DNA from: Candidatus Fervidifonticultor secundus
GTDB lineage: Bacteria > Sysuimicrobiota > Sysuimicrobiia > Sysuimicrobiales > Humicultoraceae
Assembly (NCBI GenBank): GCA_031459385.1
Contig: JAVKIP010000005.1
Coordinates: forward strand, 1-64,000
Direction of reading: 5' to 3'
DNA length: 64,000 nt
In this document: positions 7,244-63,453 of the stretch, one piece after another
Position numbering within the stretch: position 1 is the stretch's first letter
How the letters are laid out: every line of letters begins with the position of its first letter
Translations under genes and position numbers: made by a program
Notes under the pieces: model-generated
Databases searched by the model: none
Told to the model about the DNA's origin: nothing
The model's input: only the letters and a program-made list of their open reading frames with translations

Positions 7244-7274
7244 GCCCCTGGCGGCGCGCCGCGGTAGGTGGCGA

Positions 7275-9143: not shown

Positions 9144-9160
9144 GCCGCCCCAGCCCGGCG

Positions 9161-11062: not shown

Positions 11063-14403
<3,341 letters not shown>

Positions 14404-26651: not shown

Positions 26652-27995
26652 TCACCCGGGCAGCCGGCGGAACTCTTCCAGTGCCCGGTCGATGAACGCG
26701 TCGGTACTCCCCAGGTAGTGCTCGACCGCCAGCGCGCGCACGAGCTGATCGGCCGGCAGCGCGGCCCGGATCTCCTCGTCTGCTGCGGCCGCGCGCTCCA
26801 GCGGCAGGCCCGCCCGTGTGGCAGTGTCGCAGACGCGCTGCACGACGCGGTAGGCCACCTCGCGCCCGAGCACCCCGGCCAGGGCCATCGTGAGGGCTTC
26901 GGCCATGATCTGGCCTCCGCCTGCAGCCAGGTTGGCCCGCATGCGCCCGGCATCCACGACGAGCCCGTCCAGTGCCCGGCGCACCCAGTCCACGGCTGCC
27001 GCCGTGCGCTCGAACAGTTCGGGCACCGCGGCCCACTCGGCCTGCCAGCCACCTGCCGCCCGCTCGTGCTCCTGCGCCGGCCAGGCCGCCAGCACCGTGG
27101 AGGCCATCCCCAGCGCCAGACGCGCGTTGGCCAGGGCGAACGTGGGCTCCACCGGGTTGCGCTTCTGCGGCATCGTAGACGACCGCGCCGCGCCGGCCTG
27201 GGCGCCGGTCGAGATCTCGCCGACCTCGGTCTGACTGAGCAGCGCCAGGTCGCCCGCGACCTTCGCGGCAGCGCCGGCGACGAGACCCAGCGCCGCGCCG
27301 ACCTCGCCCACGCGGTCGCGCTCGGCATGCCAGGGCAGGTCGGGCACGCCCAGGCCGAGCGCGCGGGCCACGAGTTCCATCACCCGCGGACCGTCGGGGC
27401 CGAGCGCGGCCAGGGTGCCGGCGGCGCCGCCCAGCTGCACCACCAGGACCCGCCCACGCGCCTCGCGCAGGCGCCCCACCAGCCGCACCACCAGCGCGAG
27501 CCACCGCGCCGCCTTCAGGCCAAAGGTGATGGGCACGGCGTGCTGGAGCAGCGTGCGGCCGGCCATGACTGTGCGCCGGTGCTCGTGCGCGAGCCCGGCG
27601 CAGACCTGGCCGACCGCGCGCAGCCCGCGCTCCAGCACATCGAGGCCCTCGCGCACCTGCAGGACCATGGCCGTATCCAGGACGTCCTGGCTCGTGGCGC
27701 CCCAGTGCACGAACCCCCGCGCGCTCGGCTCGACCAGCCCACCGAGCACGCGCACGAGTGGCACCGCCAGCGTCCCCGACGCGGCGGCTTCCTCGACGAG
27801 GGCCGGCACGTCGAAGAGGTCGGCGCGGCAGCGGGCGGCGATCGCCTCCGCGGCGCCTGCCGGGATCACGCCGACTGCGGCCTGGGCCCGGGCCAGCGCC
27901 GCCTCGAAGTCGAGCGCCCGCTGCACCAGCGCTGGCGCCGCGAAGACCGCCGCCATGGCGGGGGCGCGGAAGTACGCGAGGTCGCCGGCGGTCAC
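26652..27995 (-). CDS. pcaB: 3-carboxy-cis,cis-muconate cycloisomerase
   Basis: Fumarate-lyase superfamily motifs VHWGATSQD, GRTLLQHAVP, QLGGAAGTLA, SSTMPQKRNP and EHERAAGGWQAEW, in pca context. Confidence 0.92.
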   Translation of the reverse strand: MTAGDLAYFRAPAMAAVFAAPALVQRALDFEAALARAQAAVGVIPAGAAEAIAARCRADLFDVPALVEEAAASGTLAVPLVRVLGGLVEPSARGFVHWGATSQDVLDTAMVLQVREGLDVLERGLRAVGQVCAGLAHEHRRTVMAGRTLLQHAVPITFGLKAARWLALVVRLVGRLREARGRVLVVQLGGAAGTLAALGPDGPRVMELVARALGLGVPDLPWHAERDRVGEVGAALGLVAGAAAKVAGDLALLSQTEVGEISTGAQAGAARSSTMPQKRNPVEPTFALANARLALGMASTVLAAWPAQEHERAAGGWQAEWAAVPELFERTAAAVDWVRRALDGLVVDAGRMRANLAAGGGQIMAEALTMALAGVLGREVAYRVVQRVCDTATRAGLPLERAAAADEEIRAALPADQLVRALAVEHYLGSTDAFIDRALEEFRRLPG

Positions 27996-28759
27996 GTCGC
28001 CTGGGCCCCGGGCGCGGAGCGCGCGACGAGGTCGCGCAGCACGGCCAGTTCGTGCGGCTGCGGCGGGGGGGTCTCCTCCACCGTCGGGGCAAAGCGGACC
28101 GGCCACCCCGTGCGCTCGATGATCTGCTCCCGCGTCACCGCGGGATGCATCGACGTCACCACCAGCTCCCGGGTCCCGGGGTCCGGCCGCAGCAGGCAGA
28201 GGTCGGTGACGACGAGCGTCGGGCCCCGAGTCCGAAGCCCCAGCCGCGCCCGGGCATCGCCGCCCGCACCGTGGCCGACCGACGTGACGAAGTCTACCCG
28301 CGGCACGAACGCCCGGCGCGTGTGCGGCGTGATCACGAACACCTCATGGCAGTGGCTCGCGATCTCCGGCGCACCGCCGGCGCCGGGCAGGCGTACCTGC
28401 GGGTGGCTGTACGAGCCGATGACGGTGGTGTTGATGTTCCCGAAGCGGTCGATCTGCGCCGCGCCGAGGAAGCCGACAGTGATGCGGCCGCCCTGGAGCC
28501 AGTAGGCGAACATCTCCGGCACGGAGACCGTGGTCAGCGCGGTCTCGCACAGCTCGGGATCGCCGATCGACAGCGGCAGCACGGTGGGTCTGGTGGCGAT
28601 CGTACCGGACTCGTAGATCAGCACGATGTTGGGCGCGTGGGTCAGCCGGGCCAGGTTGCAGGCGGCCGAGGGCAGCCCGATGCCGACGAAGCAGATGTCG
28701 TCGTCGGCCAGCGCTCGCGCGGCGGCCACGGTCATCATCTCGGTGGGGGTGCAGTCCAT
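27992..28759 (-). CDS. CoA-transferase beta subunit (GctB/CatJ type; probable 3-oxoadipate CoA-transferase)
   Basis: EMMTVAAARAL, FVGIGLP, LIYESG, GFLGAAQIDRFGNINTT and LPGAGGAPEIA. Confidence 0.88.
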   Translation of the reverse strand: MDCTPTEMMTVAAARALADDDICFVGIGLPSAACNLARLTHAPNIVLIYESGTIATRPTVLPLSIGDPELCETALTTVSVPEMFAYWLQGGRITVGFLGAAQIDRFGNINTTVIGSYSHPQVRLPGAGGAPEIASHCHEVFVITPHTRRAFVPRVDFVTSVGHGAGGDARARLGLRTRGPTLVVTDLCLLRPDPGTRELVVTSMHPAVTREQIIERTGWPVRFAPTVEETPPPQPHELAVLRDLVARSAPGAQAT

Positions 28760-28762
28760 AGT

Positions 28763-29635
28763 CTACGCCGTGCCCGCCCCCCCTGCGCCCCGGCCCTGCG
28801 GTGCCGTAGCCTCCAGCACGTGCGCGCGCATCCAGGCCAGGAAGGTCTCCCGGTCCCGGGAGATGGCGTCCCAGGCGGCGTAGAACGCGTTGTCGCGGCG
28901 GTAGTAGCCGTGCGCGTACGACGGCCGCGCGCCGCCCGGGGCCACGGCGATGGCGTCGATCGTCCAGGCCGGCAGCACCACGGCGTTGGGGCCGCCCGCG
29001 CGCAGGTCGTCCACGACCTCCTCGACGGTGACCACGGCGCGCGCGGCGGCCAGAACCACTTCCTTCTGCACGCCGACGATGCCCTCCAGCAGGACGTTGC
29101 CCGCGCGGTCGGCGCGCTGGGCGTGCACGATGGCCACATCGGGCCGGATCGAGGGCACAGCCGCCAGAAGCTCGCCAGTGAACGGGCAGGTGATGAACCG
29201 GATCTGGGGGTTGACGCGTGCCAGGTCGGTGCCCGCATACGCCCGCAGCACCGCGCAGGGCAAGCCCGCCGCGCCGGCCGCGTAGGCCGCGGCCATGCCC
29301 GCATGGCTGTGCTCCTCCAGCGCCAGCGGGCGCGGCCAGCCGTGCTCGACGGCGTCGCGGAACCGGTGCAACGATCCCACTCCCGGATTCCCGCCCCACG
29401 AGAAGACCAGCCGGCGCGCGCAGCCCATGCCGATCAGCTGGTCGTAGAGCAGGTCGGGCGTCATGCGGTACAGGGTGAGGTCCCGCCGGCCCTGCCGGAT
29501 TACCTCGTGGCCGGCCGCGAAGGGGATCAGGTGCGTGAAGCCTTCCATCGCCACCGCGTCGCCGTCCCGGACGTACTCGGCGATCGCCTCCGGAAGGGGC
29601 AGGAAGCGGGCCCGGCGCCGGCGGCAGTGCTCCAT
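28763..29635 (-). CDS. CoA-transferase alpha subunit (GctA/CatI type; probable 3-oxoadipate CoA-transferase)
   Basis: EGFTHLIPFAAGHEVIRQ, RMTPDLLYDQLIG, FSWGGNPGVGSLHRFRDAVE and HAQRADRAGN. Confidence 0.88.
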   Translation of the reverse strand: MEHCRRRRARFLPLPEAIAEYVRDGDAVAMEGFTHLIPFAAGHEVIRQGRRDLTLYRMTPDLLYDQLIGMGCARRLVFSWGGNPGVGSLHRFRDAVEHGWPRPLALEEHSHAGMAAAYAAGAAGLPCAVLRAYAGTDLARVNPQIRFITCPFTGELLAAVPSIRPDVAIVHAQRADRAGNVLLEGIVGVQKEVVLAAARAVVTVEEVVDDLRAGGPNAVVLPAWTIDAIAVAPGGARPSYAHGYYRRDNAFYAAWDAISRDRETFLAWMRAHVLEATAPQGRGAGGAGTA

Positions 29636-30213
29636 CAGAACTCGAACGCAAAGAAGGCGGTCTCGCCGTCTCCCTGCAGCACGATGTCGAAGCGGTAGAC
29701 CGGTGGCACCCCGCCCGGCTGGCGGCGCGCGAGCAGCGTTTCGCGGCGCTGCGGGGGCACGAGGCGCAGGACGGGATCCGTGGCCGTCGCCGGGTCGTCA
29801 TCGAAGTACAGGCGCGTCCACAGGCAGTCCAGCAGGCCGCGCGCCGCGACCGCCACGTTGATGTGCGGCGCCTGCAGCACCTCGCCCCGGAACGGGACGG
29901 GGCCCGGCTTGATCGTCTCGAACCAGAAGAAGCCCGCCTCGTCGGTCCCCGCGCGCCCGAAGCCGACGAAGGCCGGGTCCAGCGGCACCGGGCGCTGATC
30001 CAGGGGGTGGCGGTACCGCCCGAAGGCGTTCGCCTGCCAGATCTCCACCATGGCATCGTGCACCGGCGCCCGGTCGCCGTCGTAGACATAGCCCTCCAGG
30101 CGGATGCGCTGCCCCTGGGTGTCCGGGCGCACCAGCACGTTCAGCCCCTCTCGCAGCAGACCGCCGTGGAAGAACGGTCCGACGGTCTGCGAGGGGGTCA
30201 GCCCGCGGCGCAT
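29635..30213 (-). CDS. pcaG: Protocatechuate 3,4-dioxygenase alpha subunit
   Basis: TPSQTVGPFF, EIWQANAFG, APHINV, ARGLL, TRLYF and YRFDIVLQGDGET. Confidence 0.93.
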   Translation of the reverse strand: MRRGLTPSQTVGPFFHGGLLREGLNVLVRPDTQGQRIRLEGYVYDGDRAPVHDAMVEIWQANAFGRYRHPLDQRPVPLDPAFVGFGRAGTDEAGFFWFETIKPGPVPFRGEVLQAPHINVAVAARGLLDCLWTRLYFDDDPATATDPVLRLVPPQRRETLLARRQPGGVPPVYRFDIVLQGDGETAFFAFEF

Positions 30214-30226
30214 GGCAGCCCGCGGC

Positions 30227-30949
30227 TCATGACGGCCGCGCGATAGCCTCGAAGGGCTCGAAGGGCGTCACCATCGGCCCGCGCAGCACGATGTCGAACC
30301 GGTAGCCCAGCGCGTACTCGGGCTGGGTCACGTCGTGCGCGTAGCGGGCGATGAGGCGGTCGCGGGCGCCGGCCGGCACCGCGTTGAAGATCGGATCCAG
30401 CGCCAGCAGCGGATCGCCAGGGAAGAACATCTGGGTGATCAGCCGCGATGTCCACGTGGGCCCGAACAGCGAGAAGTGGATGTGCGGCGGGCGCCAGGCG
30501 TTGGGATGGTTGAGCCACGGGTAGGCGCCCGGCCGGATGCTCACGAACCGGTAGACGCCGTCGGCATCGGTGAGGAACCGTCCCCACCCCAGGAAGTTCG
30601 GATCCAGCGGTGCGTGGTGCTGGTCGGCGCGGTGGCGGTAGCGGCCCGCGGCATTGGCCTGCCAGATCTCCACCAGCGTGCCGGGCATGGGCGCGCCGCG
30701 CTCGTCCAGCACCCGCCCGGTCACGATGATCCGCTCGCCGATGGCCTCCTGGCCGGTGCCCATGTTGCGCGTCAGATCGGCGTCGTCGACGTGGACGACG
30801 CTCAGCTCGGGTCCCGGGCCGGTGAGCTCGGAGAGCGTGGGCGGCAGCGGCACCAGCGGCTGGCGCGGCGACCGCTTGATCGTGGCGCGGTAGGCTTCAT
30901 AGTAATACGGCGGAAAGACGTCAGGATCTCGCCGCGAGACCGTGCTCAT
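30227..30949 (-). CDS. pcaH: Protocatechuate 3,4-dioxygenase beta subunit
   Basis: IGERIIVTGRV, EIWQANAAGRYRH, PGAYPW.NHPNAWRPPHIHFS (Fe ligands) and GDPL. Confidence 0.94.
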   Translation of the reverse strand: MSTVSRRDPDVFPPYYYEAYRATIKRSPRQPLVPLPPTLSELTGPGPELSVVHVDDADLTRNMGTGQEAIGERIIVTGRVLDERGAPMPGTLVEIWQANAAGRYRHRADQHHAPLDPNFLGWGRFLTDADGVYRFVSIRPGAYPWLNHPNAWRPPHIHFSLFGPTWTSRLITQMFFPGDPLLALDPIFNAVPAGARDRLIARYAHDVTQPEYALGYRFDIVLRGPMVTPFEPFEAIARPS

Positions 30950-31365
30950 CGTCCGCTCCCCTCGGGCGCTGCCGCGCCACCTCCCCCCGGCCCGGGCGGT
31001 GCCGCCTCCGCCAGTTCCGCCCTGGCCAGCCCGAAGGCCCAGTTCGCCGCCGGCACCCCGGCGTAGACCGCCACGTGCAGCAGCGCCTCGGCGATCTCCC
31101 GGGGATCGACGCCGGTGTTCCGGCTGGCCCGCAAGTGCAGCGCCAGTTCCTCGCGGCCCAGCGCCGCCAGGATCGCGATCGTCACCAGGCTGCGCGTCCG
31201 TCGGTCCAGGCCGGGCCGCGCCCACACGCTGCCCCAGGCGGTCTCGGTGATGAACCGCTGGAAGTCGGCGTCGAACGGCGTCTGCCGGGCCTCGGCCCGC
31301 GCCACGTGCTCGGCGCCCAGCACCTCGATGCGCACTTTGCGCCCGATCTCGTACCGGGACTCCAT
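30946..31365 (-). CDS. pcaC: 4-carboxymuconolactone decarboxylase
   Basis: FQRFITETAWGSVWARPGLDRRTRSLVTIAIL and HVAVYAGVPAAN. Confidence 0.92.
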   Translation of the reverse strand: MESRYEIGRKVRIEVLGAEHVARAEARQTPFDADFQRFITETAWGSVWARPGLDRRTRSLVTIAILAALGREELALHLRASRNTGVDPREIAEALLHVAVYAGVPAANWAFGLARAELAEAAPPGPGGGGAAAPEGSGR

Positions 31366-31438: not shown

Positions 31439-32152
31439 TCACGATCCCCCGGACGCGCCGGCCCGCCGCGCCAGGTACGCCCACGCCTGGTGCACCTGCG
31501 CCGGGGAGTAGCAGTGTGCCCGCTTGGCCAGCGCCTCGCCGTCGCTGGACCACGTGCGCAGCTCGCCCGCGGAGGCGGCCAGCAGCTGTTTCCAGCACGC
31601 CCGCTCCAGCAGCACGGCGCTCATCACGGCCGTCTCCAGGTCCTCGCCCGCGGTCACGATGCCGTGGTGCACCATGAGCGCGGCGTTCCGTGTCCCCACG
31701 GTCGCGGCCAGCGCCCGTCCCAGCTCGCGGGTGAGGATCAGGTCGCCGGTCAGCGTGAAGCGCGCGATATCGGGCGGCACGAAGAACGTCCCCTCGTGCG
31801 AGATCGGCCGCAGGGGCTGCGCCAGGGCCGCGAACGCCACCGCGTACGGCGCATGGGTGTGGCAGACCGCCTGCACGTCGGGGCGCGCGCGCATGAGCTC
31901 GGTGTGGATGGGGTACTCGCTGTGCCGCGTGCCCTCGCCTGCCAGCACCTCGCCGTTCCACCCCACGAGCAGGACGCGGGCGGGCGTGACCTCCTCGAAC
32001 GCCCACCCCGACGCCTTCATCCACACGCCGCGCCCGCCCGGATCCCGCAGCGACACGTGGCCCCAGATCAGGTCCCCGTGATCCTCCAGGGCGAGGATGC
32101 GGGACGCCAGGGCCACGCGCTCGCGCATCTCGTCGTCGCGAATGCGACTCAC
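31439..32152 (-). CDS. Class II aldolase/adducin-family protein (possible aromatic decarboxylase)
   Basis: GHVSLR, SEYPIHTELMRARPDV, VCHTH and MVHHG metal motifs. GTG start after CAGGAG. Confidence 0.85.
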   Translation of the reverse strand: MSRIRDDEMRERVALASRILALEDHGDLIWGHVSLRDPGGRGVWMKASGWAFEEVTPARVLLVGWNGEVLAGEGTRHSEYPIHTELMRARPDVQAVCHTHAPYAVAFAALAQPLRPISHEGTFFVPPDIARFTLTGDLILTRELGRALAATVGTRNAALMVHHGIVTAGEDLETAVMSAVLLERACWKQLLAASAGELRTWSSDGEALAKRAHCYSPAQVHQAWAYLARRAGASGGS

Positions 32153-32183: not shown

Positions 32184-32882
32184 TCATCGCCCGCCTCCGA
32201 CCAGCAGCAGTCCCGCGGCCAGGCTCGCCGCGCCCGCCGCCTGCTGCACGAGCCGCCGCGCGCCGGCCGCGCGCGACGAGGCCCGGAGCGCCGGCCACAG
32301 GGCCAGGGCACCGACCGCGACCATACCGGCCAGGCTCCCGGTCGCGAACAGCCCCAGGGATGCGGCGGCGCGCGGCGACGGCGCCGCCACGGCCACCGCC
32401 GCCACCGCGGCCCCGCTGCCCGCCAGCCCGTGGAGGCTCCCCACCAGGTACGCGGCCAGCGGCGCGTGCATCCAGCGCGGCGCCGTCGGATGGGCGTGCC
32501 CGGGGCCGTGGCGGTGCACGTGGAAGTGCGTGTGCACCATACCCGGGGCGTGCGCGTGCGTGTGCACGTGCAGGCGCTCGCGTCGCGCCCGCGCCAGGGT
32601 GAGCGCGCCCAGCAGGATCATCACAGCACCGGCGGCAACGTCGGCGCGGGCCGCGAGCCAGCCGGGCAGGCTCCGGCCCGATGCCGCCAGGAGCACGCCG
32701 GCTGCGGCCACCACCGTGGCATGCCCGGCGCCCCAGGCCACGGCCACACGCAGGACCTCGCCGCGGCTGCGGCCGTGGGCCGCCATCGTCGACACCGCGG
32801 CGAGGTGGTCCGGCTCCAGCGCATGCCGGGCGCCCAGCAGCAGCCCGTACGTCAGCACCAGCACGTCGTCGACGGGCATCAC
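32184..32882 (-). CDS. Nickel/cobalt transporter-like membrane protein (UreH/HoxN/RcnA-like)
   Basis: GARHALEPDHLAAV signature, WGAGH, His-rich loop HVHTHAH...HTHFHVH and GSLHGLAGS. Confidence 0.82.
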   Translation of the reverse strand: MMPVDDVLVLTYGLLLGARHALEPDHLAAVSTMAAHGRSRGEVLRVAVAWGAGHATVVAAAGVLLAASGRSLPGWLAARADVAAGAVMILLGALTLARARRERLHVHTHAHAPGMVHTHFHVHRHGPGHAHPTAPRWMHAPLAAYLVGSLHGLAGSGAAVAAVAVAAPSPRAAASLGLFATGSLAGMVAVGALALWPALRASSRAAGARRLVQQAAGAASLAAGLLLVGGGR

Positions 32883-34102
32883 GGGCGCCGTCCCTGGGGG
32901 AGATCTGCGGGCACAGGCCGGCGGTAGAAGTCGTCGTCCATCCGGCTCGCCCCGCCCTCCTGGCGCAGCATCGCCTCCCAGTCCTGCCGGATGAACGGGT
33001 CCTCCTCCCAGTAGGGAATCGCGCTGCCGCCCTCATCGAGGTGCATCGCGTTCCTGTCGAGCACCTCTTCCCCGGGCCGGCCGGGCTCGCGGCCGGTGCC
33101 GCGGCCGAACGGCCCGAACCAGGCCATCAGGCGCAGCGGCTCCCGGCCGACGCCGAAGTGCTGGTGGAACCACTGGCCGCCCATAGGCGCTGCGCTCACC
33201 ATGCCCACAGGCTCGTAGTCCTGGCGCACTACGCGGCTGGCCTGCCCCGTGGTCCAGGGCCGCGGGCCCACCTCGCGGGGCCACGCGTACGTGTACCCTT
33301 TCCCCTTGATGCAGATCAGCACCGCCGCCGACTCGTGGGCGTGTGCCTTCGAGTACCGGCCGGTCTCGTGCTGGCCGATCCACAGGTAGAAGACGTTTCG
33401 GTCCAGGTGGGGCTCCAGGCGTCGGAACCCGGGCGAGCGGCGGTTGTCGAGCGGCAGCGGGCAGTTGACCGCATCGGGAACGATGTTGGTGCGCACCATG
33501 GCCAGCCCGCGGAACGGGTCGGGCTCGATCTCCTGGAGGTTCGCCCGGTAGTAACCAGCGCCGCCGTCGTAGCGGTCGCGGAACGCATACGGGCAGTTGA
33601 AGACGAAGTCGGCGTTGCCGAACAGGTTCATGACGGCCGGCGCAGTGGTGCCCACCAGCAGCAGCGCCGGTCCCGACGCCATGCTGTTGATCAGGCGATG
33701 CGAGGTGTTCAAGGGGATCGTGAACAGCGACCCGGGCTGCCACTCGACGACCTCGCGGCTGCCGCCGTCGTCGGTCCACACCTCGGCGGCGCCGCGGCCC
33801 TCGACGACGAAGATCACTTCCTCATAGAGGTGGCGCTCGGGCTGCAGGGCCTCCGCGGGCGGGATCTCCACCACGTAGCATCCCCACAGGCCCTCGGTGC
33901 CGTAGAGCTGGATGAACGCGCCCCGTCCGCCCAGGCGGCGCCAGGCCCCCAGCGGCAGCTCCTGCACCCGCCGCACGCCGATGCCGCGGTGCACCGGGAT
34001 GCCTTCGGCTTCCATGAACAGGTCGTAGGGCGCGGGCGGGCGCTTCCATCGCCCCCAGCCGGCCCGCTGGTCTCCTGAGGGCTCCCGCCAGGGTCCGGTC
34101 AT
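32879..34102 (-). CDS. Bicupin protein 1 (function unknown)
   Basis: Two cupin units: ERHLYEE...PLNTSHRL and KAHAHES...WFHQHF. ATG after GAGGAG. Confidence 0.85.
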   Translation of the reverse strand: MTGPWREPSGDQRAGWGRWKRPPAPYDLFMEAEGIPVHRGIGVRRVQELPLGAWRRLGGRGAFIQLYGTEGLWGCYVVEIPPAEALQPERHLYEEVIFVVEGRGAAEVWTDDGGSREVVEWQPGSLFTIPLNTSHRLINSMASGPALLLVGTTAPAVMNLFGNADFVFNCPYAFRDRYDGGAGYYRANLQEIEPDPFRGLAMVRTNIVPDAVNCPLPLDNRRSPGFRRLEPHLDRNVFYLWIGQHETGRYSKAHAHESAAVLICIKGKGYTYAWPREVGPRPWTTGQASRVVRQDYEPVGMVSAAPMGGQWFHQHFGVGREPLRLMAWFGPFGRGTGREPGRPGEEVLDRNAMHLDEGGSAIPYWEEDPFIRQDWEAMLRQEGGASRMDDDFYRRPVPADLPQGRRP

Positions 34103-34173
34103 CGGTCTCCTCGCCACGTCAGCGCGTCAGAGGATCGCCGCAGCATCGCGATGCTTCGACCCCCTGTGCCCGC

Positions 34174-34653
34174 TTACCGGAGCAGCGCCCCCCACAGCCA
34201 TCCGTCGGCGAACGGCAGGTGGAGCAGCCGCACGAACAGCAACCAGAACCCCAGCCAGGCCAGGACCGGCATCGCCAGCGAAACCGCCCACCCTTCCCGG
34301 GCCTGGCCGCGCAGGTAGGCGAAGACGAACAGCGGCACCGCCCGCGGGAACCCCACCAGCGCGATGGCCAGGAAGAACCCGCCCATCCAGGCCACCATGG
34401 TCAGGGTGCGGCGCAGTGCCACCGCTGGAGGCACATCTCGAGAGAGCTCGACGTCCATCGCCTCCCGTGGATGGGCGTCGTCCTGGCGGCGCAGGCACAG
34501 CACGGCCTCGGCGGCGGCCAGCGCCAGGAGGGGGACGCCGATGACGCGCGGGTACAGCGCGGTCTTGATGGGCCACGACGCCGTCTCCGCCAGCGCCCAG
34601 GCCGCCAGCAGCGCCACCGCCGTGGCGAAGACCGCGTGGCCGCTAGGTCGCAT
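34174..34653 (-). CDS. Tripartite tricarboxylate transporter small membrane subunit (TctB family)
   Basis: Four TM helices, early YP motif, C-terminal LF..LLHLPF.DG, adjacent to TctA. Confidence 0.8.
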   Translation of the reverse strand: MRPSGHAVFATAVALLAAWALAETASWPIKTALYPRVIGVPLLALAAAEAVLCLRRQDDAHPREAMDVELSRDVPPAVALRRTLTMVAWMGGFFLAIALVGFPRAVPLFVFAYLRGQAREGWAVSLAMPVLAWLGFWLLFVRLLHLPFADGWLWGALLR

Positions 34654-36163
34654 GGACGGCCTCCGCCGCGGTCCGGCGGTGCCCCCGGCGCTGCTGGAGC
34701 AACGTGGACAGCACGACGCCCGCCACCAGCACCATCAGCGCCACGACGACCGGGCGTCCCAGCCACGCCGCGCCATAGCGCGCCACCGAGATCCACAGGT
34801 AGCGCTCCGCCACGTCGCCCAGCACGAGACCCAGCACCAGCGGCGCCCGGGGCCACTGGTAGCGGACCATCAGGTACCCGAGCGCTCCGAAGGCGAGCAT
34901 CACGACCACATCGCCCAGGCTGTTGTTGGCCGTGTAGGCGCCGACGAACGTCAGCAGCACCAGCACCGGGATCAGCAGCGTCCCGCGGATGGTCGTCAGA
35001 CGGGCCAGGTGATGCAGGAACACCAGGCAGACGGCGACGGTGACGATGTTGGCCAGCACGATCGTCCAGACCATCGAGAGGGTGACGTTGAGGTGCCGGG
35101 TGAGCATATCGGGCCCCGGCGTCAGGCCCACCAGGAAGAACCCGCCGAGCAGGATGGCCATCGCCGAGCTGCCCGGCACTCCGAACGCCACCGTCGGGAT
35201 CAGCGCGCCGCCCTCCTTGGAGTTGTTGGCGGCGCCAGGCCCCAGCACGCCGCGCACGTCGCCCGTGCCGAAGGCCGCCCGCTCGTGTGGCGAGCGGACG
35301 CTCTGGGCGGCGTGCGCGTAGGCCAGCCACTGGGCGACACCGCCGCCCAGCCCCGGGATGATGCCGATGTACGTGCCGATCAGGCTGCAGCGGATGGTGA
35401 GCCAGAAGTGCCGGAACACATCGCGCACTCCGGCGGCCACGCCCGCCAGCCGTCCGGCCGGTGCCTGGCCGGCGATCGCCGTGCCCCGCACGGCCAGGTC
35501 GATGATCTCGGGGATCGCAAAGAAACCCACCAGCACTGGCACCAGGTCCAGGCCGTCCCACAGGTAGAGCGTGCCCAGCGTGTACCGGTGGTTGCCCGCC
35601 TGGGGATCCGAGCCGACGGCGGCGATCATCAGCCCCAGCGCGCCTGCCAGGAACCCCCGCAGCATCGCCCGGGGGCTGCGGCCGCTGAGGGACGCGATGA
35701 ACGCGATCCCCAGCACCGCCAGCATGAACAGTTCGGGCGAGCCGAACGTCAGCACCAGGGGCCGCACCACCGGGATCGCCGCCGCCAGCGCCGCGGCGCC
35801 GACCACCGCACCCACCAGCGAGGATCCCAGCGCGGCGCCCAGCGCGCGGCCCGCCTCGCCCCGCTTGGCCATGGCGTGGCCGTCGAGGACCGTGGCGGCC
35901 GTGGTCCCCTCGCCGGGGATGCCGAAGAGGATCGAGGTGATGTCCCCGGTGGTGGCCACCACGGCGTGCATTCCCAGCAGGAACGCGAAGGCCGCCACCG
36001 GCTCCATGCGGTAGACGAAGGGCAGCATCAGGGCCAGCGTGGTGCCCCCGCCCAGGCCAGGGAGGAGCCCGACCCAGAAGCCCACGGCGATGCCGATGAG
36101 CATGAAGCGCAGGGCCTGCCACTGGAGGACCTCGACGAGCGCCTGCAGCAGGGCTTCAAGCAT
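34643..36163 (-). CDS. Tripartite tricarboxylate transporter large membrane subunit (TctA family)
   Basis: GLLPGLGG, SILFGIPG, DGHAMAKRGEAGRAL and ANNSKEGGALIPTVAFGVPGS. Confidence 0.92.
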   Translation of the reverse strand: MLEALLQALVEVLQWQALRFMLIGIAVGFWVGLLPGLGGGTTLALMLPFVYRMEPVAAFAFLLGMHAVVATTGDITSILFGIPGEGTTAATVLDGHAMAKRGEAGRALGAALGSSLVGAVVGAAALAAAIPVVRPLVLTFGSPELFMLAVLGIAFIASLSGRSPRAMLRGFLAGALGLMIAAVGSDPQAGNHRYTLGTLYLWDGLDLVPVLVGFFAIPEIIDLAVRGTAIAGQAPAGRLAGVAAGVRDVFRHFWLTIRCSLIGTYIGIIPGLGGGVAQWLAYAHAAQSVRSPHERAAFGTGDVRGVLGPGAANNSKEGGALIPTVAFGVPGSSAMAILLGGFFLVGLTPGPDMLTRHLNVTLSMVWTIVLANIVTVAVCLVFLHHLARLTTIRGTLLIPVLVLLTFVGAYTANNSLGDVVVMLAFGALGYLMVRYQWPRAPLVLGLVLGDVAERYLWISVARYGAAWLGRPVVVALMVLVAGVVLSTLLQQRRGHRRTAAEAVHAT

Positions 36164-36188
36164 GCCCGGTGCGCGCCCCGACGCGCGC

Positions 36189-37190
36189 CTACTCGAACCG
36201 GAAGAACTGGCTGAAGATCCGCACCACGTCGGCCGGCGCGCCCAGGACCTCCCGGATGACCCGCAGCGCCTGGTCACCGGGCACGAAGTCGATCTCGAAA
36301 CCCGCCCGCTCAGCTTCGGCCAGGAAGTCGCGGTCTTCGCTCACCCGCTTGAACGCCTCGCGGAAGAGCCTGACGCTCTCCTCCGGCGTGCCGGGCGGCA
36401 TGACGAAGGGACGCCCGATCTCCTCGGGCGTCGAGCGCAGGCGCATCACCGCCTTGGCCCGGGGCTCGGTCACCAGGTCCTCGTCCACCGGCAGCGCCCG
36501 GATAGCCGGGACCGTGGCCCGGGCGCGCACCACGGCCCGCACGAGCCCGCGGTCGATGAACGGCTTCAGCGACGAGTACGAGCCGGCGCGCCCGTCCACT
36601 TCCCGGCGTTCCACCGCCAGCATGATGTCCGCGCTCGAGGGGTACCCGCTGATGATCCGGAGGTTGAACCCTGCCAGGGCCTTGAGGAGCAGTGGGAAGT
36701 CGTAGGTGTTGGCGCCCGGGCCGGTGGCGCCGATGATGACGGCGGGGTCGGCCCGCCGGAGGTCGATCGCCTGCCGGTACGGCAGGTCGGCACGGATGGC
36801 CAGCACCGTGGTCTCGCTGGCGATGCTGCCCACCCACCCGAACCGCAGCATGTCGAACCGCATCCCTTCCACCTTCATGAGCTGGCCCACGACCAGGTTG
36901 CGGTTGAACAGCCCCAGCGTCAGCCCGTCGGGCCGGGCCACGGAGTAGACGTGATTGGCCGCCACGATGCTGTTGGCGCCGGGCATGTTCTGCACGATGG
37001 TCGTGGGGTTGCCCGGGAGGTACTTGGGCAGGTGGCGCGCCACCATGCGCGCGATGCGATCGTACCCTCCGCCGGCGGCGTAGCCGACGACGATCGTCAC
37101 GGTCTTGCCCGCCAGGCTGGGCTGTGGCTGCGCACCCGCCGTCGCGCTTGCCAGGAGCACGAGCACCGCCAGGACCGCGATGACCCTCAT
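36189..37190 (-). CDS. Tripartite tricarboxylate transporter substrate-binding protein (TctC/Bug family)
   Basis: Signal peptide, IVVGYAAGGGYD, VQNMPGA, PDGLTL and GYPSS...LAVERREVDG. Confidence 0.9.
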   Translation of the reverse strand: MRVIAVLAVLVLLASATAGAQPQPSLAGKTVTIVVGYAAGGGYDRIARMVARHLPKYLPGNPTTIVQNMPGANSIVAANHVYSVARPDGLTLGLFNRNLVVGQLMKVEGMRFDMLRFGWVGSIASETTVLAIRADLPYRQAIDLRRADPAVIIGATGPGANTYDFPLLLKALAGFNLRIISGYPSSADIMLAVERREVDGRAGSYSSLKPFIDRGLVRAVVRARATVPAIRALPVDEDLVTEPRAKAVMRLRSTPEEIGRPFVMPPGTPEESVRLFREAFKRVSEDRDFLAEAERAGFEIDFVPGDQALRVIREVLGAPADVVRIFSQFFRFE

Positions 37191-37398
37191 CTCGATCCCC
37201 CCTGCCGCCGTCACGGCATCCCGCGTGGACCACCTCGGGGCCCTCCTCTTCCACCTCCGGCGCTGTGGCTCCTGCGCTGGGACCGTGTCCGCAGCGCGGC
37301 GCCCGGCGGCGCCCGGGGGCCGCCACAAGGGCTCGGCCCCGCGGCCCGCGTATTACCTCGGTGGGCCGCCCGAGGGCAGGCGGCGAAGGGGGCGTTTT

Positions 37399-38505
37399 AT
37401 GGAGCGGATGATGACACGGCTTCCCGACGACTGGGGACAGATGGCATACCGCCGGTTCCTCGAGGCCGAGGGCATTCCCCTCGTCACAGGGCTGGCCGTG
37501 GACGACCTGCACGCCGTGGAGGTGGCGCCCTGGCCGCGCCTGGACGCCCGCGGCGCTTACATCCAGCTGACCGGCGCCGAGGACACCGACAGCGGCCACA
37601 TCCTCGAGATCCCGCCAGGACGGTCCACGGCCCCCGACCGACACCTCTACGAGGAAGTGTTCCTGGCCCTGGCCGGGCGCGGGACGTGCGAGGTCTGGAA
37701 CCAGGCCGGCGCGCACCAGACGTTCGAATGGCAGCGGGGCAGCGTGTTCGCCATCCCCCTCAACACGTCCCACCGCCTGCACAACGGCTCGGGCCGGGAG
37801 CCGGCCCGCCTGCTGGGCGTCACCACCGCCCCGTTGATGATCAACCTGCTGCGCAACCTCGACTTCATCTTCCGCTGCCCGTTCGACTTCACCGACCGCT
37901 TCCAGGGCCAGGCCGACTACTTCACCGGCGAGGGCACCCTCTACACCCGCCCGGATACTACCCAGAAGATCTGGGAGACCAACTTCGTGGCCGACGTCTA
38001 CCGGCTGGGGCTCTACGACTGGGTCGAGCGTGGGGCCGGCGGCAAGCACGTGAAGTTCGAGCTGGCCAACAACGCGCTGATCGCCCACGTCTCCGAGTTC
38101 CCGGTGGGCACCTACAAGAAGGCGCACCGGCATGGGCCCGGCGCCCACGTGGTGATCCTGGAGGGCGAGGGCTTCAGCCTGATGTGGACTGACCAGCACG
38201 AGACGTTCGAGGACATCCGGTGGAAGCCCGGGGCGATGTTCGTGCCGCCGGGGATGTGGTGGCACCAGCACTTCAACACCGGGCGGACGCCGGCGCGCTA
38301 CCTGGCCATCCGGTGGGGCAGCACGCGGTGGAAGATCACTCGCTACCTCGACTACCAGGGCGTGGACAAGAGCGCGAAGGCCGGCGGCAATCAGATCGAG
38401 TACGCCGACCAGGACCCGCGCGTCCACCAGCTCTTCGTCGAGCGCTGCCGGGCCAACGGCGTTGAAGTCAGGATGGACCAGTTCTTTGCGCCCGCGGCGC
38501 GCTAG
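37399..38505 (+). CDS. Bicupin protein 2 (function unknown)
   Basis: DRHLYEE...PLNTSHRLHN and YKKAHRHGPGAHV...WWHQHFN. Clearly paralogous to bicupin 1. Start could be 37399, 37408 or 37411. Confidence 0.87.
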   Translation: MERMMTRLPDDWGQMAYRRFLEAEGIPLVTGLAVDDLHAVEVAPWPRLDARGAYIQLTGAEDTDSGHILEIPPGRSTAPDRHLYEEVFLALAGRGTCEVWNQAGAHQTFEWQRGSVFAIPLNTSHRLHNGSGREPARLLGVTTAPLMINLLRNLDFIFRCPFDFTDRFQGQADYFTGEGTLYTRPDTTQKIWETNFVADVYRLGLYDWVERGAGGKHVKFELANNALIAHVSEFPVGTYKKAHRHGPGAHVVILEGEGFSLMWTDQHETFEDIRWKPGAMFVPPGMWWHQHFNTGRTPARYLAIRWGSTRWKITRYLDYQGVDKSAKAGGNQIEYADQDPRVHQLFVERCRANGVEVRMDQFFAPAAR

Positions 38506-38509
38506 CGCG

Positions 38510-39979
38510 ATGCACGAGTTCGACGAGGACCACATCCACCTCGCCGGCGACGACGGCGCGGCCGTCTACGTCGGCGACCGCGTGGTCCTGCGCAGCGTGG
38601 GCGTCGATATCGGCTCGTCGACCTCGCACATGATCTTCTCGCGGCTCACCCTCGAGCGGCAGGGCCAGCGGCTCTCCAGCCGCTTCGTCGTCACCGCGCG
38701 GGAGGTTCTGTTCCGCTCGCCGGTGATCTTCACGCCCTTCGAGCCCTCAGGCCGGCTCGATGCCCCGGCGCTGGCCCGCTTCATCAACGCCGCCTACAAC
38801 GACGCCGGCGCCCTGCCCGAGCAGGTCGATGCGGGTGCGGTCATCACCACGGGCGAGGCGGCGCGCCGCGAGAACGCCCGGGCCGTGGGCGAGCTCTTTG
38901 CCCGGCACGCCGGCAGGTTCGTCACCGCCACCGCCGGCCCCAACCTCGAGAGCCTGCTGGCCGCGCACGGGTCGGGCGCCGTGGAGTTCTCGAAGAATAC
39001 CACCGACCCGCTGCTCAACGTGGACATCGGCGGCGGCACCACCAAGTTCGCGATCTGCCAGGCCGGGCGCGCAGAGCACACCGGCGCCATCCACCTGGGC
39101 GCACGCCTGCTGGCCTGGGACCCGGCGGGCACCCTGGTCCGGGTCGAGGCCGCCGGCCAGCGGCTCGCGGCGGCCGCGGGCCTGGCCCGGCTCCCCGCAG
39201 TGGGCGACCGGCCCGCGCCCGAGGCGCTGGACCGGCTGGCCGACCACATGGCCGAGGTCGTGCTGCGCATCGTTCAGGGCGCCCGCGACACCGACCTCTG
39301 GATCACCGACCCGCTGCCGCCGGCACCCGCGTGCCGGCACGTCGTCGTCTCGGGCGGGGTGGCCGAGTACGTCTACGGTCGCGAGGCGCGCGAGTTCGGC
39401 GACCTGGGCCCGCGGCTCGCCGCTGCCGTGCGACGCCGCGCCGCGGCGGCGGGCCTGGCACTCTTGGACCCGCGGGAGGGCATCCGCGCCACCTGCATCG
39501 GAGCGTCGCAGTACACGGTGCAGCTGAGCGGCGACACGATCTTCCTCACCGATCCCGGGGTGCTGCCGCTGCACAGCGTGCCGGTGGTGCGCCTGCGGCG
39601 CGCCGGGCCGTCGGCAGACGTGGTGGCCGAGGCGCTGCGCCAGGGCATGGCCCGCCTCGACCTCACGCCCGACGACGCGCCGTTCGCGGTCGCGGTGCAC
39701 TGGCACCACGGCGCCGACTACGCGTCGCTCAGGGAACTGTGCGCCGGCATCACCGCCGCCCTGCCGCGCGGGGGGAACGGCCATCCCCTGCTGGTGGTCA
39801 TCGACGCCGACGTGGCCGGCCTGGTGGGGGCCCTGCTGCGGCAGGAGTTCGGGGTGCCGGGCGAGATCGTCTGCATCGACCAGGTGCTCCTGCGCGAGTT
39901 CGACTACATCGACGTGGGCCGGCCGCTCCCCGACCAGGGCGTGGTGCCGGTAGTGGTCAAGAGCCTGGTCTTCCGCTGA
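38510..39979 (+). CDS. EutA-like (ethanolamine ammonia-lyase reactivase family) ASKHA ATPase
   Basis: SVGVDIGSSTSHMIFSRL, GAVITTGEAARRENA, FVTATAGPNLESLLAAHGSGA, NVDIGGGTTK, IRATCIGASQYTVQLSG and C-terminal DYIDVG...VPVVVKSLVF. Confidence 0.88.
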   Translation: MHEFDEDHIHLAGDDGAAVYVGDRVVLRSVGVDIGSSTSHMIFSRLTLERQGQRLSSRFVVTAREVLFRSPVIFTPFEPSGRLDAPALARFINAAYNDAGALPEQVDAGAVITTGEAARRENARAVGELFARHAGRFVTATAGPNLESLLAAHGSGAVEFSKNTTDPLLNVDIGGGTTKFAICQAGRAEHTGAIHLGARLLAWDPAGTLVRVEAAGQRLAAAAGLARLPAVGDRPAPEALDRLADHMAEVVLRIVQGARDTDLWITDPLPPAPACRHVVVSGGVAEYVYGREAREFGDLGPRLAAAVRRRAAAAGLALLDPREGIRATCIGASQYTVQLSGDTIFLTDPGVLPLHSVPVVRLRRAGPSADVVAEALRQGMARLDLTPDDAPFAVAVHWHHGADYASLRELCAGITAALPRGGNGHPLLVVIDADVAGLVGALLRQEFGVPGEIVCIDQVLLREFDYIDVGRPLPDQGVVPVVVKSLVFR

Positions 39980-40177
39980 GCTCGGTCCACGTCAGAGTGG
40001 TCGCGCAGGCTTGTGCGCCCCGACGCCGGATCTCCACGCGTGGGAAGCCTGGGGCGGCGCGGTTCGTCGGCGTCCACCGATGCACAGGATGTTGCGATCC
40101 TGACTGCCCTGCGCCGAGCAGTAGACGACGTGGAACATCAGTTCCGGGAGCGCGAGGAAGCCGGAGGCGACTTGACG

Positions 40178-41449
40178 CTATGAGCCCGCCCGGCGGTACG
40201 CCGCCCGGGCTCCTCCCGCGCCATTCGGCCGGCACAGGTCGGGCACCGCCGCCACCGCCGCGTTGGCCACCAGCACGGTCGCCGCGATGGCGTAGAAGAC
40301 GGAGGGGAGCCCGTACCGGTCGGCGATGACCCCGCCGGCCAGCGGCGCGAGCGTCGCGCAGGCTGCCTGCGCCGTGAACAGCGCGCCCACGGTGGTCCCC
40401 TCGTACGCCCGCGGCACCACCCCCAGCGCCCAGCGGAAGATCGCCGGCCGCATCGAGTAGACGAAGAACCCCAGCAGCGCCAGCACGGCCACGAACAGCG
40501 GGCCCGAGCCCAGGGCCGCCACCGCCAGCACCACCAGGCTCGTGGTGAGCATCCCCGCCGTGGCCACGCGCTTGGGGCCGAGGCGGTCGGCAAGCGTCCC
40601 CGCCAGCGGGGTGGCCACCATGCCGGAGACCTGCACGAGGGTCATGTACAGGCCCAGCAGCGCCGCAGGCACGTGCAGCGTGTACACCAGGTACAGCGGC
40701 AGGAAGGTGCTCAGGCCCTGCTGGGTCAGAGACCGGATGCCCGAGATGCCGGCCAGGGCCATGAAGCGGGCGTTGCGCACCAGCGCCGCCAGCCCGCCGG
40801 CGTACTCCCGCGCCGTGCGGGCCGGACGGTCGCCGGAGGCACCCACCTGCGTCCGACGCAGCACCTCCAGCAGGGCCAGCGCCAGCGGCAGCCCGAGCGC
40901 CACCGTTGCCGAGAGCACGCCGCGCCACGCCAGCATGCCGACCAGCAGCCCGGCGGCCAGCGGCGCCACCACTTCGCCCACGTTGGCCCCGAGCTCGTGC
41001 AGGGCCAACCCGTAGCCGCGGCGGTCCGGATAGCGCGCCGACAGCGCCGTGATGGCGGCGGGGTGCCAGAGGAACATCGCCACGCCGACCACCGCCATGG
41101 CCGCGACCATCACGGGGAAGCTGCGGCTGAACACGATCGCCAGGTACGGCACCAACGTCAGTAGCAGCGATGCGGTCATGAGGAGGTCGCGCCGCCCCAG
41201 GACGTCTGCGACCGCGCCGGCCGGCAGGTTGACCACGATGCTCATCACCTGGCGCGCGCTGAGCAGCAGCCCCACCTGGCTGAACGACAGGCCCAGGTCG
41301 CGGGCGATGTAGGGCAGCAGCAGTCCGAAGCTGGCGGTCGCGGCGTGGTTCAGGGCGTGGCCGGCCGCGACCGCCCAGAGACCGACATTGCTGCGGTCCG
41401 GCCGCGGCAGCGCAGAGCGCAGGAGGTGCGGCGCAGTGCGCAGCGCCAC
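40178..41449 (-). CDS. MFS transporter
   Basis: About 12 TM helices, GHALNH, GAVADVLGRR, WHPAA and GTLADRLGPK. This is the C-terminal part of the 960-aa ORF in the track. Confidence 0.88.
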   Translation of the reverse strand: MALRTAPHLLRSALPRPDRSNVGLWAVAAGHALNHAATASFGLLLPYIARDLGLSFSQVGLLLSARQVMSIVVNLPAGAVADVLGRRDLLMTASLLLTLVPYLAIVFSRSFPVMVAAMAVVGVAMFLWHPAAITALSARYPDRRGYGLALHELGANVGEVVAPLAAGLLVGMLAWRGVLSATVALGLPLALALLEVLRRTQVGASGDRPARTAREYAGGLAALVRNARFMALAGISGIRSLTQQGLSTFLPLYLVYTLHVPAALLGLYMTLVQVSGMVATPLAGTLADRLGPKRVATAGMLTTSLVVLAVAALGSGPLFVAVLALLGFFVYSMRPAIFRWALGVVPRAYEGTTVGALFTAQAACATLAPLAGGVIADRYGLPSVFYAIAATVLVANAAVAAVPDLCRPNGAGGARAAYRRAGS

Positions 41450-50092: not shown

Positions 50093-50300
50093 CGTCCTCC
50101 ACCCCCGATGGACAGCCCGTGCGTCCGCGGCGCCGCCGCGCCGCGGCGTGCGGTCGCGCCCTGTCTACTCCAGCCGCTCCTCGGGCACCTGCTGTGGCAG
50201 CGCCGCGGCCGGGGCAGCCGCCCGGAGGGATGCTCGCGCGCCGCGCCGTAGTCTCAGGGCAGCCGCGCGCGCCGACAGGCGGCGTGGCCGGGAGGTGCTC

Positions 50301-53719: not shown

Positions 53720-53722
53720 GGA

Positions 53723-54199
53723 TCAGCCCTCGTCGATGTCGGGCTCGGGGAGCGCCACCAGGTCGCTGGTGTCCACCAGGGGCGCGAAGTCCATGTGGCG
53801 CGCGCGCAGCAGCGCCTCCAGCTCCTGCGCGCTCAGCAGGATCCCGAGCCCCGCGTTCATGTCCCGCACGAACAGGGCCTCCGCGGCCTCCGCGCGCGCT
53901 ATGGCCACGCCCACCAGCGCGAACTCGTTCTGCAGGCGCTCCAGCGGCGCGCCCGCCGCCGCGCGCAGGAGGGCCTCGTCGGGCGGCGCGTGCGGGCCCG
54001 GCAGCAGCGCCCAGGGCAGATGACGGGCGCGCGTCAACCCCTCCAGCTCGAGGGGGTCAAGCCAGGCCTCGGCAGGCTCGCGGGTCAGCCGGCGCAGGCG
54101 CAGCCGGGGCCCGGTGGGCGTTTCGAACCGGCTGACCTCGACGTCGCCCAGCCGGGCCAGGGTGACGTCGCGCACGTCGAAGCCCCGGGAAGATGGCAT
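53723..54199 (-). CDS. Hypothetical oxygenase-associated protein with two internal repeats
   Basis: Repeat 1 DVEVSRFETPTGPRLRLRR...AWLDPLELEGLTRARH; repeat 2 NEFALVGVAIARAEAAEALFVRD...ILLSAQELEALLRARH. Starts 2 nt after the beta-subunit stop. Confidence 0.72.
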   Translation of the reverse strand: MPSSRGFDVRDVTLARLGDVEVSRFETPTGPRLRLRRLTREPAEAWLDPLELEGLTRARHLPWALLPGPHAPPDEALLRAAAGAPLERLQNEFALVGVAIARAEAAEALFVRDMNAGLGILLSAQELEALLRARHMDFAPLVDTSDLVALPEPDIDEG

Positions 54200-54201
54200 C
54201 G

Positions 54202-54705: not shown

Positions 54706-54710
54706 CGGTG

Positions 54711-63451: not shown

Positions 63452-63453
63452 GC

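Follow-up and report, generated by a model that had tools for sequence, protein, structure and literature searches.

Which enzyme is served by a EutA-family protein in a genome that lacks ethanolamine ammonia-lyase (EAL)? The question is raised by a gene pair in Candidatus Fervidifonticultor secundus (Sysuimicrobiota; assembly GCA_031459385.1), located in a stretch of 64,000 nucleotides (contig JAVKIP010000005.1, positions 1 to 64,000; hereafter the window). The first gene of the pair encodes a two-domain cupin, bicupin2, and the second a EutA-like ATPase of the ASKHA type. Five independent kinds of computation indicate that the EutA-like protein is very probably a functional partner of the bicupin family and not an EAL reactivase. 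The client would be the two-domain cupin family, represented here by bicupin2 and probably also by a second member, bicupin1. All the evidence for the pairing is computational, and comprises family membership, ATP motifs, operon coupling, linkage, co-occurrence, the phylogenetic branch and a predicted interface. To our knowledge, nearly all reactivases described act on adenosylcobalamin enzymes. It would be new for an ATPase of a reactivase family to have a client that does not use cobalamin; the EutA family name is already present in public records.

Gene organization and the EutA-like ATPase

Because the window has a G+C content of 72%, genes were called by third-position G+C, and the 53 open reading frames (ORFs) obtained were scanned against Pfam. 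The pair and the region that precedes it are organized as follows.

37329..37398, no strand: divergent intergenic region of 70 nt between tctC and bicupin2, from gene coordinates
37399..38505, plus strand: bicupin2, two-domain cupin of 368 amino acids, predicted client or partner of the EutA-like ATPase
38510..39979, plus strand: EutA-like ASKHA ATPase of 489 amino acids, PF06277 at 402.7 bits

The ATG of the ATPase gene at 38510 lies 4 nt beyond the stop codon of bicupin2 (TAG, 38503–38505), in agreement with the spacing given in an initial annotation of the window. This start is supported by homologues that align from residue 1 of the protein, and the public gene call places the start of bicupin2 at 37408, three codons later than 37399. 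The intergenic region is presumed to be a shared control region of tctC and bicupin2. No sigma-70-like site was found in it, which says little at 72% G+C, and a promoter and terminator scan of positions 37200–40300 yielded nothing exceeding shuffled sequences. No RNA datasets are listed with the locus, the listed data being four hot-spring DNA runs from one study.

The ATPase matches PF06277 over residues 27–488 (profile positions 3–474/475; E 3.1e-120), and its score of 402.7 bits, against a Pfam gathering cut-off of 27, identifies it as a member of the EutA family. Both phosphate motifs recognized in the initial annotation are present, VGVDIGSSTS at residues 30–39 and NVDIGGGTTK at residues 170–179, and the ASKHA nucleotide motifs align with those of EutAs linked to EutB and EutC (EutBC). 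Residues D33, G35 and T38, D172, G174–176, T177 and K179, and S281, G282, G283 and E286 are invariant in 30 aligned sequences. The protein falls below the cut-offs of all four NCBIfam EutA equivalogs (NF007991 to NF007994); its best score is 311.2 bits against 598, and the others are 299.3 against 769, 235.1 against 799 and 210.4 against 952. The subfamily numbers thousands of sequences. NCBI and JGI records of close relatives nevertheless bear the name 'ethanolamine ammonia-lyase reactivating factor EutA' or the name 'ethanolamine utilization protein EutA', as anticipated by the initial annotation, which held that standard annotation would mislabel the gene.

The AF2 model of the ATPase (pLDDT 82.8) consists of an ASKHA core (approximately residues 24–335), a loop at residues 336–347 that is disordered or flexible yet invariant (SGxT), and a separate C-terminal α/β domain (residues 354–489). 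Its Foldseek neighbours are generic ASKHA proteins, namely Ppx/GppA, HgdC-type activators, MreB, ROK kinases and EutJ. No solved structure was retrieved by a single-sequence search, and a profile search gave weak ASKHA matches only. A role as an archerase (an HgdC-type activator with an Fe-S cluster) was dropped because no cysteine is conserved in the ATPase. None of three longer homologues is an ATPase-cupin fusion, which is weak evidence either way.

Conserved linkage with bicupins

Relatives of the ATPase with 40–77% identity were collected from one genome per species, and their neighbours were identified by tblastn and ORF delimitation. The resulting 67 loci span at least six phyla: metagenome-assembled genomes labelled Sysuimicrobiota or Armatimonadota, Binatota, Chloroflexota, Pseudomonadota, Thermodesulfobacteriota and Acidobacteriota. 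A family bicupin lies directly upstream on the same strand in 53 of the 67 loci (two cut by a contig end), directly downstream in three and within 6 kb in two. No bicupin was found in the remaining nine, three of which have less than 1150 nt of upstream sequence. In the upstream pairs that could be delimited, the two genes are separated by -17 to 190 nt, mostly by 13 nt or less. Near-identical loci of Binatia make up much of the set; when sequences of 85% identity or more were thinned out, 35 rows without EutBC remained, the window included, with a bicupin adjacent in 26, nearby in three and absent in six. EutB or EutC neighbours were found in none of 12 loci scanned, and other neighbours vary.

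The genome of the window contains a single true EutA-family gene and exactly two strong matches to the bicupin family profile, bicupin2 and bicupin1, all within 7 kb.

32879..34117, minus strand: bicupin1, of the same family as bicupin2 by the family profile

Bicupin1 and bicupin2 share 30–36% identity. In Binatia, Xanthobacteraceae and others, the gene directly upstream of the EutA-like one is of the bicupin1 subtype, and bicupin1 itself is about 60% identical to the EutA-adjacent bicupins of 35 loci.

Ethanolamine genes and the two kinds of EutA

The genome (3.3 Mb in 59 contigs, 97.6% complete, 5.5% contamination) was searched with family profiles, with Escherichia coli as the positive control. 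No match to EutB (PF06751), EutC (PF05985) or the microcompartment family BMC (PF00936) was found in the whole genome, and none of the 53 window ORFs belongs to the EutB, EutC, BMC-shell or cobalamin families in Pfam. The initial annotation had noted that the 64 kb contain no eutB, eutC, microcompartment or cobalamin gene and had proposed a genome-wide search for eutBC; the observation is confirmed, and at 97.6% completeness the wider search is equally empty. Nor was EutB found in any of the seven other carriers of the cupin-type protein that were tested (five of five, plus the Chloroflexota genomes G431 and G545), several of which are single-chromosome assemblies.

Co-occurrence across genomes was evaluated with the EutA family at E ≤1e-20 in Pseudomonadota and the bicupin profile at E ≤1e-30 in Chloroflexota. 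Matches to PF06277 at E 0.001 in Bacillus, Caulobacter, Thermus and Deinococcus disappear at E 1e-20, and are therefore other ASKHA proteins. Among 301 sampled Chloroflexota genomes, 16 contain the EutA family, 15 the bicupin family and 14 both (Fisher p 3.5e-23, uncorrected for shared ancestry). All 14 Chloroflexota carriers of cupin-type EutA also have the bicupin family, often with 3–6 EutA copies, and in the two EutA-only genomes the EutA is of the high-scoring type (528–536 bits) and directly adjoins EutB. The EutA family is present in five of 401 sampled Pseudomonadota genomes. One of these has three EutA copies at 387–420 bits, none beside EutBC; in the other four, EutA adjoins EutB or EutC. 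Three of the Pseudomonadota EutAs, at 555–570 bits, belong to classic eut clusters with EutH, EutG-like, EutJ-like, EutB, EutC and shell genes. The bicupin family occurs, among the 401, only in the one carrier of cupin-type EutA, which is the chosen centre of the sample. The fourth EutBC-linked copy in Pseudomonadota is a very divergent EutA (229 bits, branch length about 6) that precedes a 740-residue EutB-EutC fusion (locus L080, 6135–9840).

Phylogenetic analysis separates the two kinds. In a careful, unrooted tree of 41 rows (six EutBC-adjacent and 35 others), the six split from the 35 with UFboot 94 and SH-aLRT 97, and in 96% of 200 bootstrap trees. The window protein thus does not group with the EutBC-linked EutAs in this unrooted tree (94/97), which is what the neighbour-annotated phylogeny suggested in the initial annotation was meant to address. 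A quick tree of 71 sequences, also unrooted, places the EutBC-adjacent sequences on one side of a branch (SH-aLRT 96); the other side contains a clade of 35 rows (support 100) with bicupin1-type partners, and the rest have bicupin2-type partners. Cupin-type and EutBC-linked members are 32–37% identical, with Pfam scores of 350–430 against 528–570 bits. Both kinds keep the ATP motifs, the SGxT loop and the DYIDxG motif, and sixteen positions are fixed differently between them, including K179 (Asn in the EutBC-linked five), W398 and F464.

These data bear on the conventional reading, in which the protein is an ordinary EutA whose eutBC genes lie in the unassembled 2.4% of the genome or were recently lost, leaving a relic. 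A genome in 59 contigs at 97.6% completeness and the full-length Pfam match would allow for it. Yet EutB is also missing from the seven other carriers, and the protein stands on the non-EutBC side of a supported split, below every NCBIfam EutA cut-off. A relic does not fit with motifs that are all intact and a subfamily of thousands of sequences. We consider an ordinary EutA extremely improbable.

The bicupin family

Bicupin2 contains two Cupin_2 stretches in Pfam, and its AF2 model (pLDDT 88.4) consists of two β-barrel halves. Residues 30–363 superimpose on solved bicupins with Z values of 19–21, in accordance with a bicupin architecture. The family alignment reveals invariant H243, H245, H289 and H291, together with Y239 and K241, in the C-terminal cupin, and no conserved HxH in the N-terminal cupin. 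The histidine metal site of gentisate dioxygenase lies in the N-terminal cupin; the invariant histidines of bicupin2 are in the C-terminal one.

The closest structures are salicylate and gentisate 1,2-dioxygenase (Z 21.0). MncA and oxalate decarboxylase follow within 1 Z, so that the chemistry cannot be read from the fold. A search of the Protein Data Bank (PDB) with the family profile retrieves gentisate dioxygenase 3bu7 through its C-terminal domain (E 9.3e-9), the matched segment including a KAHRH-type motif. Bicupin2 matches gentisate and 5-aminosalicylate dioxygenase models only faintly, and scores 22.7 bits against a cut-off of 442.1 for the gentisate 1,2-dioxygenase equivalog TIGR02272. 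Public records name these bicupins 'cupin domain-containing' or 'hypothetical', and a protein atlas places them in 'cupin domain-containing protein' clusters only.

Two further cupin genes were noted. The only Chloroflexota genome with a bicupin and no EutA, a single case, has a weaker, diverged copy (locus L121, 1418–2425; G437:C4) that carries W111F, Y239F and K241N. In the window, a two-cupin protein with a canonical-looking N-terminal cupin (49986–51335, plus strand) is located between ABC and MFS transporter genes; it was rejected as a member of the module because it is only distantly related to the family (22% identity).

Predicted complex of the ATPase and bicupin2

Structure prediction of the EutA-like protein with bicupin2 gave an ipSAE of 0.71 (0.73, 0.70 and 0.71 in individual runs), compared with 0.00 for the best of three controls. 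The runs have at least 91% of contacts in common, and the pLDDT of the partner is at least 87. Since no solved EutA relative was found, the complex is not recallable from a known structure. On the ATPase, the predicted interface comprises loop residues 341–343 and residues 401–407, 433–446, 457–458, 475 and 477 of the C-terminal domain. On bicupin2 it involves the N-terminal cupin at residues 74–76, 94–98, 108–115, 128–133, 175–177 and 198–204. The bicupin side of this surface is rich in columns that are invariant in the family (6 of 27, versus 24 of 341; p 0.015). The proposal of the initial annotation that the ATPase has a different client thus gains computational support from five sides: no EutBC in the genome, a bicupin adjoining in 56 of the 67 loci, co-occurrence, a separate branch, and predicted binding at 0.71.

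A third candidate for the client is another adenosylcobalamin enzyme encoded elsewhere, the bicupin being an unrelated neighbour. The genome is not free of B12 enzymes, as two MM_CoA_mutase matches (on contigs C12 and C23) and two B12-binding domains were found on other contigs, and one Dehalococcoidia relative (L066) is directly upstream of a methylmalonyl-CoA mutase gene. Enzymes of the methylmalonyl-CoA mutase type use MeaB-type G-protein chaperones, however, and the mutases of this genome are not on the contig of the window. A mutase neighbour occurs in only one of the 12 loci scanned; the neighbour that is conserved, and that co-occurs with the ATPase in 14 of 14 genomes, is the bicupin family, for which bicupin2 also shows predicted binding with clean controls. 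A mutase client is accordingly very unlikely.

Genomic context and metal-transport neighbours

The genes around the pair in the window are the following.

26652..31365, minus strand: pcaB-like gene, pcaIJ-like CoA transferase (two subunits), pcaG/pcaH-like genes and pcaC, by Pfam; same strand as bicupin1 and downstream of it
31439..32140, minus strand: class II aldolase/adducin-family protein, PF00596 at 139.8 bits; ORF open to 32311
32184..32882, minus strand: NicO-like membrane protein with a histidine-rich loop and hydrophobic segments, PF03824 at 34.6 bits against 27.7
34174..34653, minus strand: TctB small permease, PF07331, E 1.8e-11
34643..36277, minus strand: TctA large permease, PF01970 at 408.8 bits
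36189..37328, minus strand: TctC-family solute receptor, first gene of the divergent operon, PF03401, E 1.2e-10
40178..41449, minus strand: MFS transporter, convergent with the EutA-like gene, PF07690 at 161 bits
41452..43296, minus strand: thiamine-diphosphate enzyme with TPP_enzyme N, M and C domains, below all NCBIfam cut-offs

The tctC gene is retained beside the pair in the lineage of the window. Downstream of bicupin1, the compact protocatechuate/β-ketoadipate set suggests that an aromatic acid enters this route by way of the bicupins. In NCBIfam, PcaC scores 162.9 against a cut-off of 155.7 and the PcaB models remain under theirs, as do all models for the class II aldolase, including 3,4-dihydroxyphthalate decarboxylase (80.5 against 200). 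Aldolases of this type recur beside the pair in rhizobial loci. The thiamine-diphosphate enzyme is conserved downstream of the pair in four loci of the lineage (L004, L005, L013 and L014), and is 46% identical to such an enzyme two genes upstream of the bicupin in a Phyllobacterium locus; it may therefore act in the same pathway as the pair.

Cultured bacteria also carry the module. The cupin-type protein (43–44% identity) is encoded in Phyllobacterium zundukense and three Sinorhizobium species, at two places in each, on plasmid or chromid records. Strains available for study include P. zundukense A18/3m (NZ_CP104971.1), which has two loci, and Sinorhizobium mexicanum ITTG R7. The first Phyllobacterium locus has the order Rieske oxygenase, ferredoxin, class II aldolase, cupin, 'EutA', HoxN/NixA nickel/cobalt transporter and NikR. 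In the second, TctABC, a thiamine enzyme, an oxidoreductase and a 'hypothetical' protein, which is a family bicupin, precede 'EutA', and LysR, a YjbE-family metal-transport protein, a second Tct set and a class II aldolase follow it. The Sinorhizobium mexicanum pair is surrounded by a LigXa-like Rieske oxygenase with reductase and ferredoxin, class II aldolases, an FAD aromatic hydroxylase and an amidohydrolase_2. The module is thus accompanied by the kinds of transporter and enzyme that typically serve the breakdown of organic and aromatic acids. With the pair present in culturable rhizobia, the question is open to direct testing.

Metal-transport genes stand beside the module at four loci in three lineages.

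Window, 32184–32882, minus strand: NicO-like
First Phyllobacterium locus (L122), 10482–12084: HoxN/NixA with NikR
Second Phyllobacterium locus (L128), 11687–12328: YjbE-family
Chloroflexota locus (L109), 576–1784: NicO with an ArsR-type regulator

The NicO-like gene of the window overlaps the stop of bicupin1 by 4 nt and its product is a possible Ni/Co, or other metal, transporter; no match to it was found in the other fetched loci by tblastn. In approximately 1.2 Mb of fetched loci, true HoxN/NicO genes number two only. The transporter neighbours hint at metal exchange, and we regard them as a lead.

Two clusters farther along the minus strand were also noted. Rieske oxygenase α and β genes (benzoate/anthranilate-dioxygenase-like, under the cut-offs), a zinc alcohol dehydrogenase and an MFS transporter (52607–55985) look like another aromatic-acid module, and a UbiD-family decarboxylase adjoins two family III CoA-transferase genes (60502–62064 and 62174–63999). 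At the other end of the window, a glycogen/trehalose enzyme cluster (5123–14403) includes a 1114-residue fusion of an α-amylase-family protein with a maltokinase N-terminal cap (TreS-Mak-like).

Functional interpretation

What the ATPase does for the bicupin is less firmly indicated than the pairing. By analogy with known reactivases, an ATP-driven activase or reactivase mechanism has, in our estimate, an even chance of being correct. The C-terminal domain of the EutA-like protein, together with the invariant flexible SGxT loop, is predicted to dock on the N-terminal cupin of the bicupin. Binding and hydrolysis of ATP in the ASKHA core would then cause a conformational change that opens the bicupin, and an inactive or missing cofactor at the four-histidine site of the C-terminal cupin would be released and replaced. 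The exchanged cofactor would most likely be a metal ion, either oxidized iron or a nickel or cobalt ion that needs insertion, and the bicupin could then be active in an organic- or aromatic-acid catabolic pathway fed by the Tct transporter. In this scheme we infer the ATP-driven remodelling, the cofactor or metal exchange and the substrate class. An activase is favoured by family precedent, shared machinery, the company of metal transporters and the copy numbers: one ATPase to two bicupins here, and one to six ATPases to many bicupin paralogs elsewhere. Such one-to-many ratios point to a helper rather than a fixed subunit.

The same copy numbers speak against the principal rival, a two-component ATP-dependent enzyme whose ASKHA subunit would activate the substrate, for example by phosphorylation, for metal-dependent chemistry at the bicupin. 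ATP-using substrate activation is known in ASKHA proteins of the hydantoinase and acetone-carboxylase type, and the nearest folds of our model include ROK kinases and Ppx/GppA, that is, kinases and phosphatases. Tight translational coupling is typical of stoichiometric complexes, the predicted interface is confident, and the subfamily-fixed S37, S39 and H40 in the phosphate-1 loop and K179 in place of Asn could signal a changed chemistry. However, roughly every second Chloroflexota copy has no bicupin next to it, and the sole family member of known activity is reportedly a chaperone-type reactivase, in work by Mori and colleagues from 2004. Overall, a two-component enzyme appears rather unlikely, the ATP-driven activase being preferred.

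Several observations weigh against a bicupin-dedicated activase or against parts of it. Of the 53 cupin-type EutA-like genes in a Chloroflexota sample drawn without regard to their similarity to the window, no more than 25 have a bicupin at a distance of 1 kb or less (21 listed and four after fetching the region), and another four have one at 1.2–2.2 kb. About half of these genes are therefore bicupin-adjacent, and the linkage is not universal where paralogs are many. The genomes G431, G467, G545, G554 and others have 4–6 EutA-like paralogs and up to 115 first-look bicupin candidates; adjacency by chance becomes less improbable in genomes so rich in bicupin and Rieske paralogs. Of the 17 orphans that were scanned, four adjoin LigXa-like Rieske oxygenases (L089, L092, L096 and L104) and one adjoins two amidohydrolase_2 genes; in L109 the orphan forms a row with genes for a methyltransferase and a full-length NicO nickel transporter, the latter adjoining the ArsR-type regulator. 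Within the ATPase, the interface is conserved to much the same degree as the remaining residues (0.667 versus 0.642), and several interface residues are common to canonical EutA and do not alone explain the choice of client. The ipSAE mark is reached by 116 of 157 solved complexes and by 2 of 215 mismatched pairs, counts that hold only roughly here because the complex was folded from its own unpaired alignments. A conserved His or Cys cluster of the kind typical of metallochaperones is absent from the ATPase alignment. Metal transporters were found at four loci only, and may just as well supply the class II aldolase-type enzymes nearby. Finally, the reaction and the metal of the bicupins, distant relatives of gentisate dioxygenase by sequence, are putative.

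A wider reading of an ATP-driven activase can be offered only tentatively, as it seems to us somewhat less probable than the activase itself. The 'EutA' subfamily of soil, hot-spring and marine bacteria may constitute an unrecognized ATP-driven maturation or repair chaperone for non-cobalamin metalloenzymes, one that would load or swap the Ni/Co or Fe of four-histidine bicupins and perhaps also act on LigXa-like Rieske enzymes. If this applies, reactivase-type ASKHA chaperones would represent a general principle of enzyme repair and not a B12 speciality. If the activase holds for the bicupins, ATP-driven enzyme repair or maturation extends to cupin metalloenzymes, a new class of client. The pair also offers a handle on a large, unstudied bicupin family in the aromatic- and organic-acid clusters of abundant uncultured lineages (Binatia, SAR202/Dehalococcoidia and CSP1-3), and thousands of 'ethanolamine ammonia-lyase reactivating factor' entries wrongly imply ethanolamine use in metabolic reconstructions.

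Comparison with known systems

Neither the pairing of a EutA-like protein with a bicupin nor an ASKHA-type helper of a cupin was found in the searchable full-text literature, a scope that excludes subscription-only papers. In that literature, matches to EutA concern canonical eut genes and eut microcompartments, or the EutA of ectoine utilization. The main text of the paper on CSP1-3/Sysuimicrobiota (PMC11604079) does not mention ethanolamine, cupin, protocatechuate, aromatic, EutA or tricarboxylate.

The closest known system is EutA of Escherichia and Salmonella (PF06277). The cupin-type protein resembles it in a full-length family match, the phosphate-1, phosphate-2 and adenosine motifs, the SGxT loop and the C-terminal DYIDxG. 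As eutA adjoins eutB, EutB being encoded by the next gene in all six EutBC-linked comparators, the cupin-type gene likewise adjoins its presumed client. The difference is in the neighbour, a bicupin instead of EutB or EutC, in carrier genomes that lack EutB where tested.

The working model for the EutA-like protein is borrowed from DdrAB and GdrAB, the reactivases of diol and glycerol dehydratases. These are ATP-dependent, with an actin/Hsp70-type ATPase, and release the dead cofactor from a specific client. They differ in having a second, small subunit and a B12-dependent client, and PDB sequence and profile searches and Foldseek gave no sequence or fold match between them and the EutA-like protein.

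For the bicupins, the best comparison is with gentisate and salicylate 1,2-dioxygenases (3bu7 and 2phd), which are Fe(II) bicupins. The structures align over 256–280 residues with root mean square deviations of 3.5–4.8, and the genomic context of the bicupins is that of aromatic-acid catabolism. Bicupin2 is only 13–14% identical to these enzymes, and its conserved histidines lie in the C-terminal cupin, whereas their catalytic iron is held in the N-terminal domain.

Dedicated helpers encoded beside a metalloenzyme have precedents in the XylT-type ferredoxins of catechol 2,3-dioxygenase and the nickel insertases UreG, HypB and CooC. The pair shares this arrangement, with a Ni/Co transporter and NikR nearby in some loci. 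The known helpers are ferredoxins or P-loop NTPases, in contrast to the ASKHA-type candidate helper described here.

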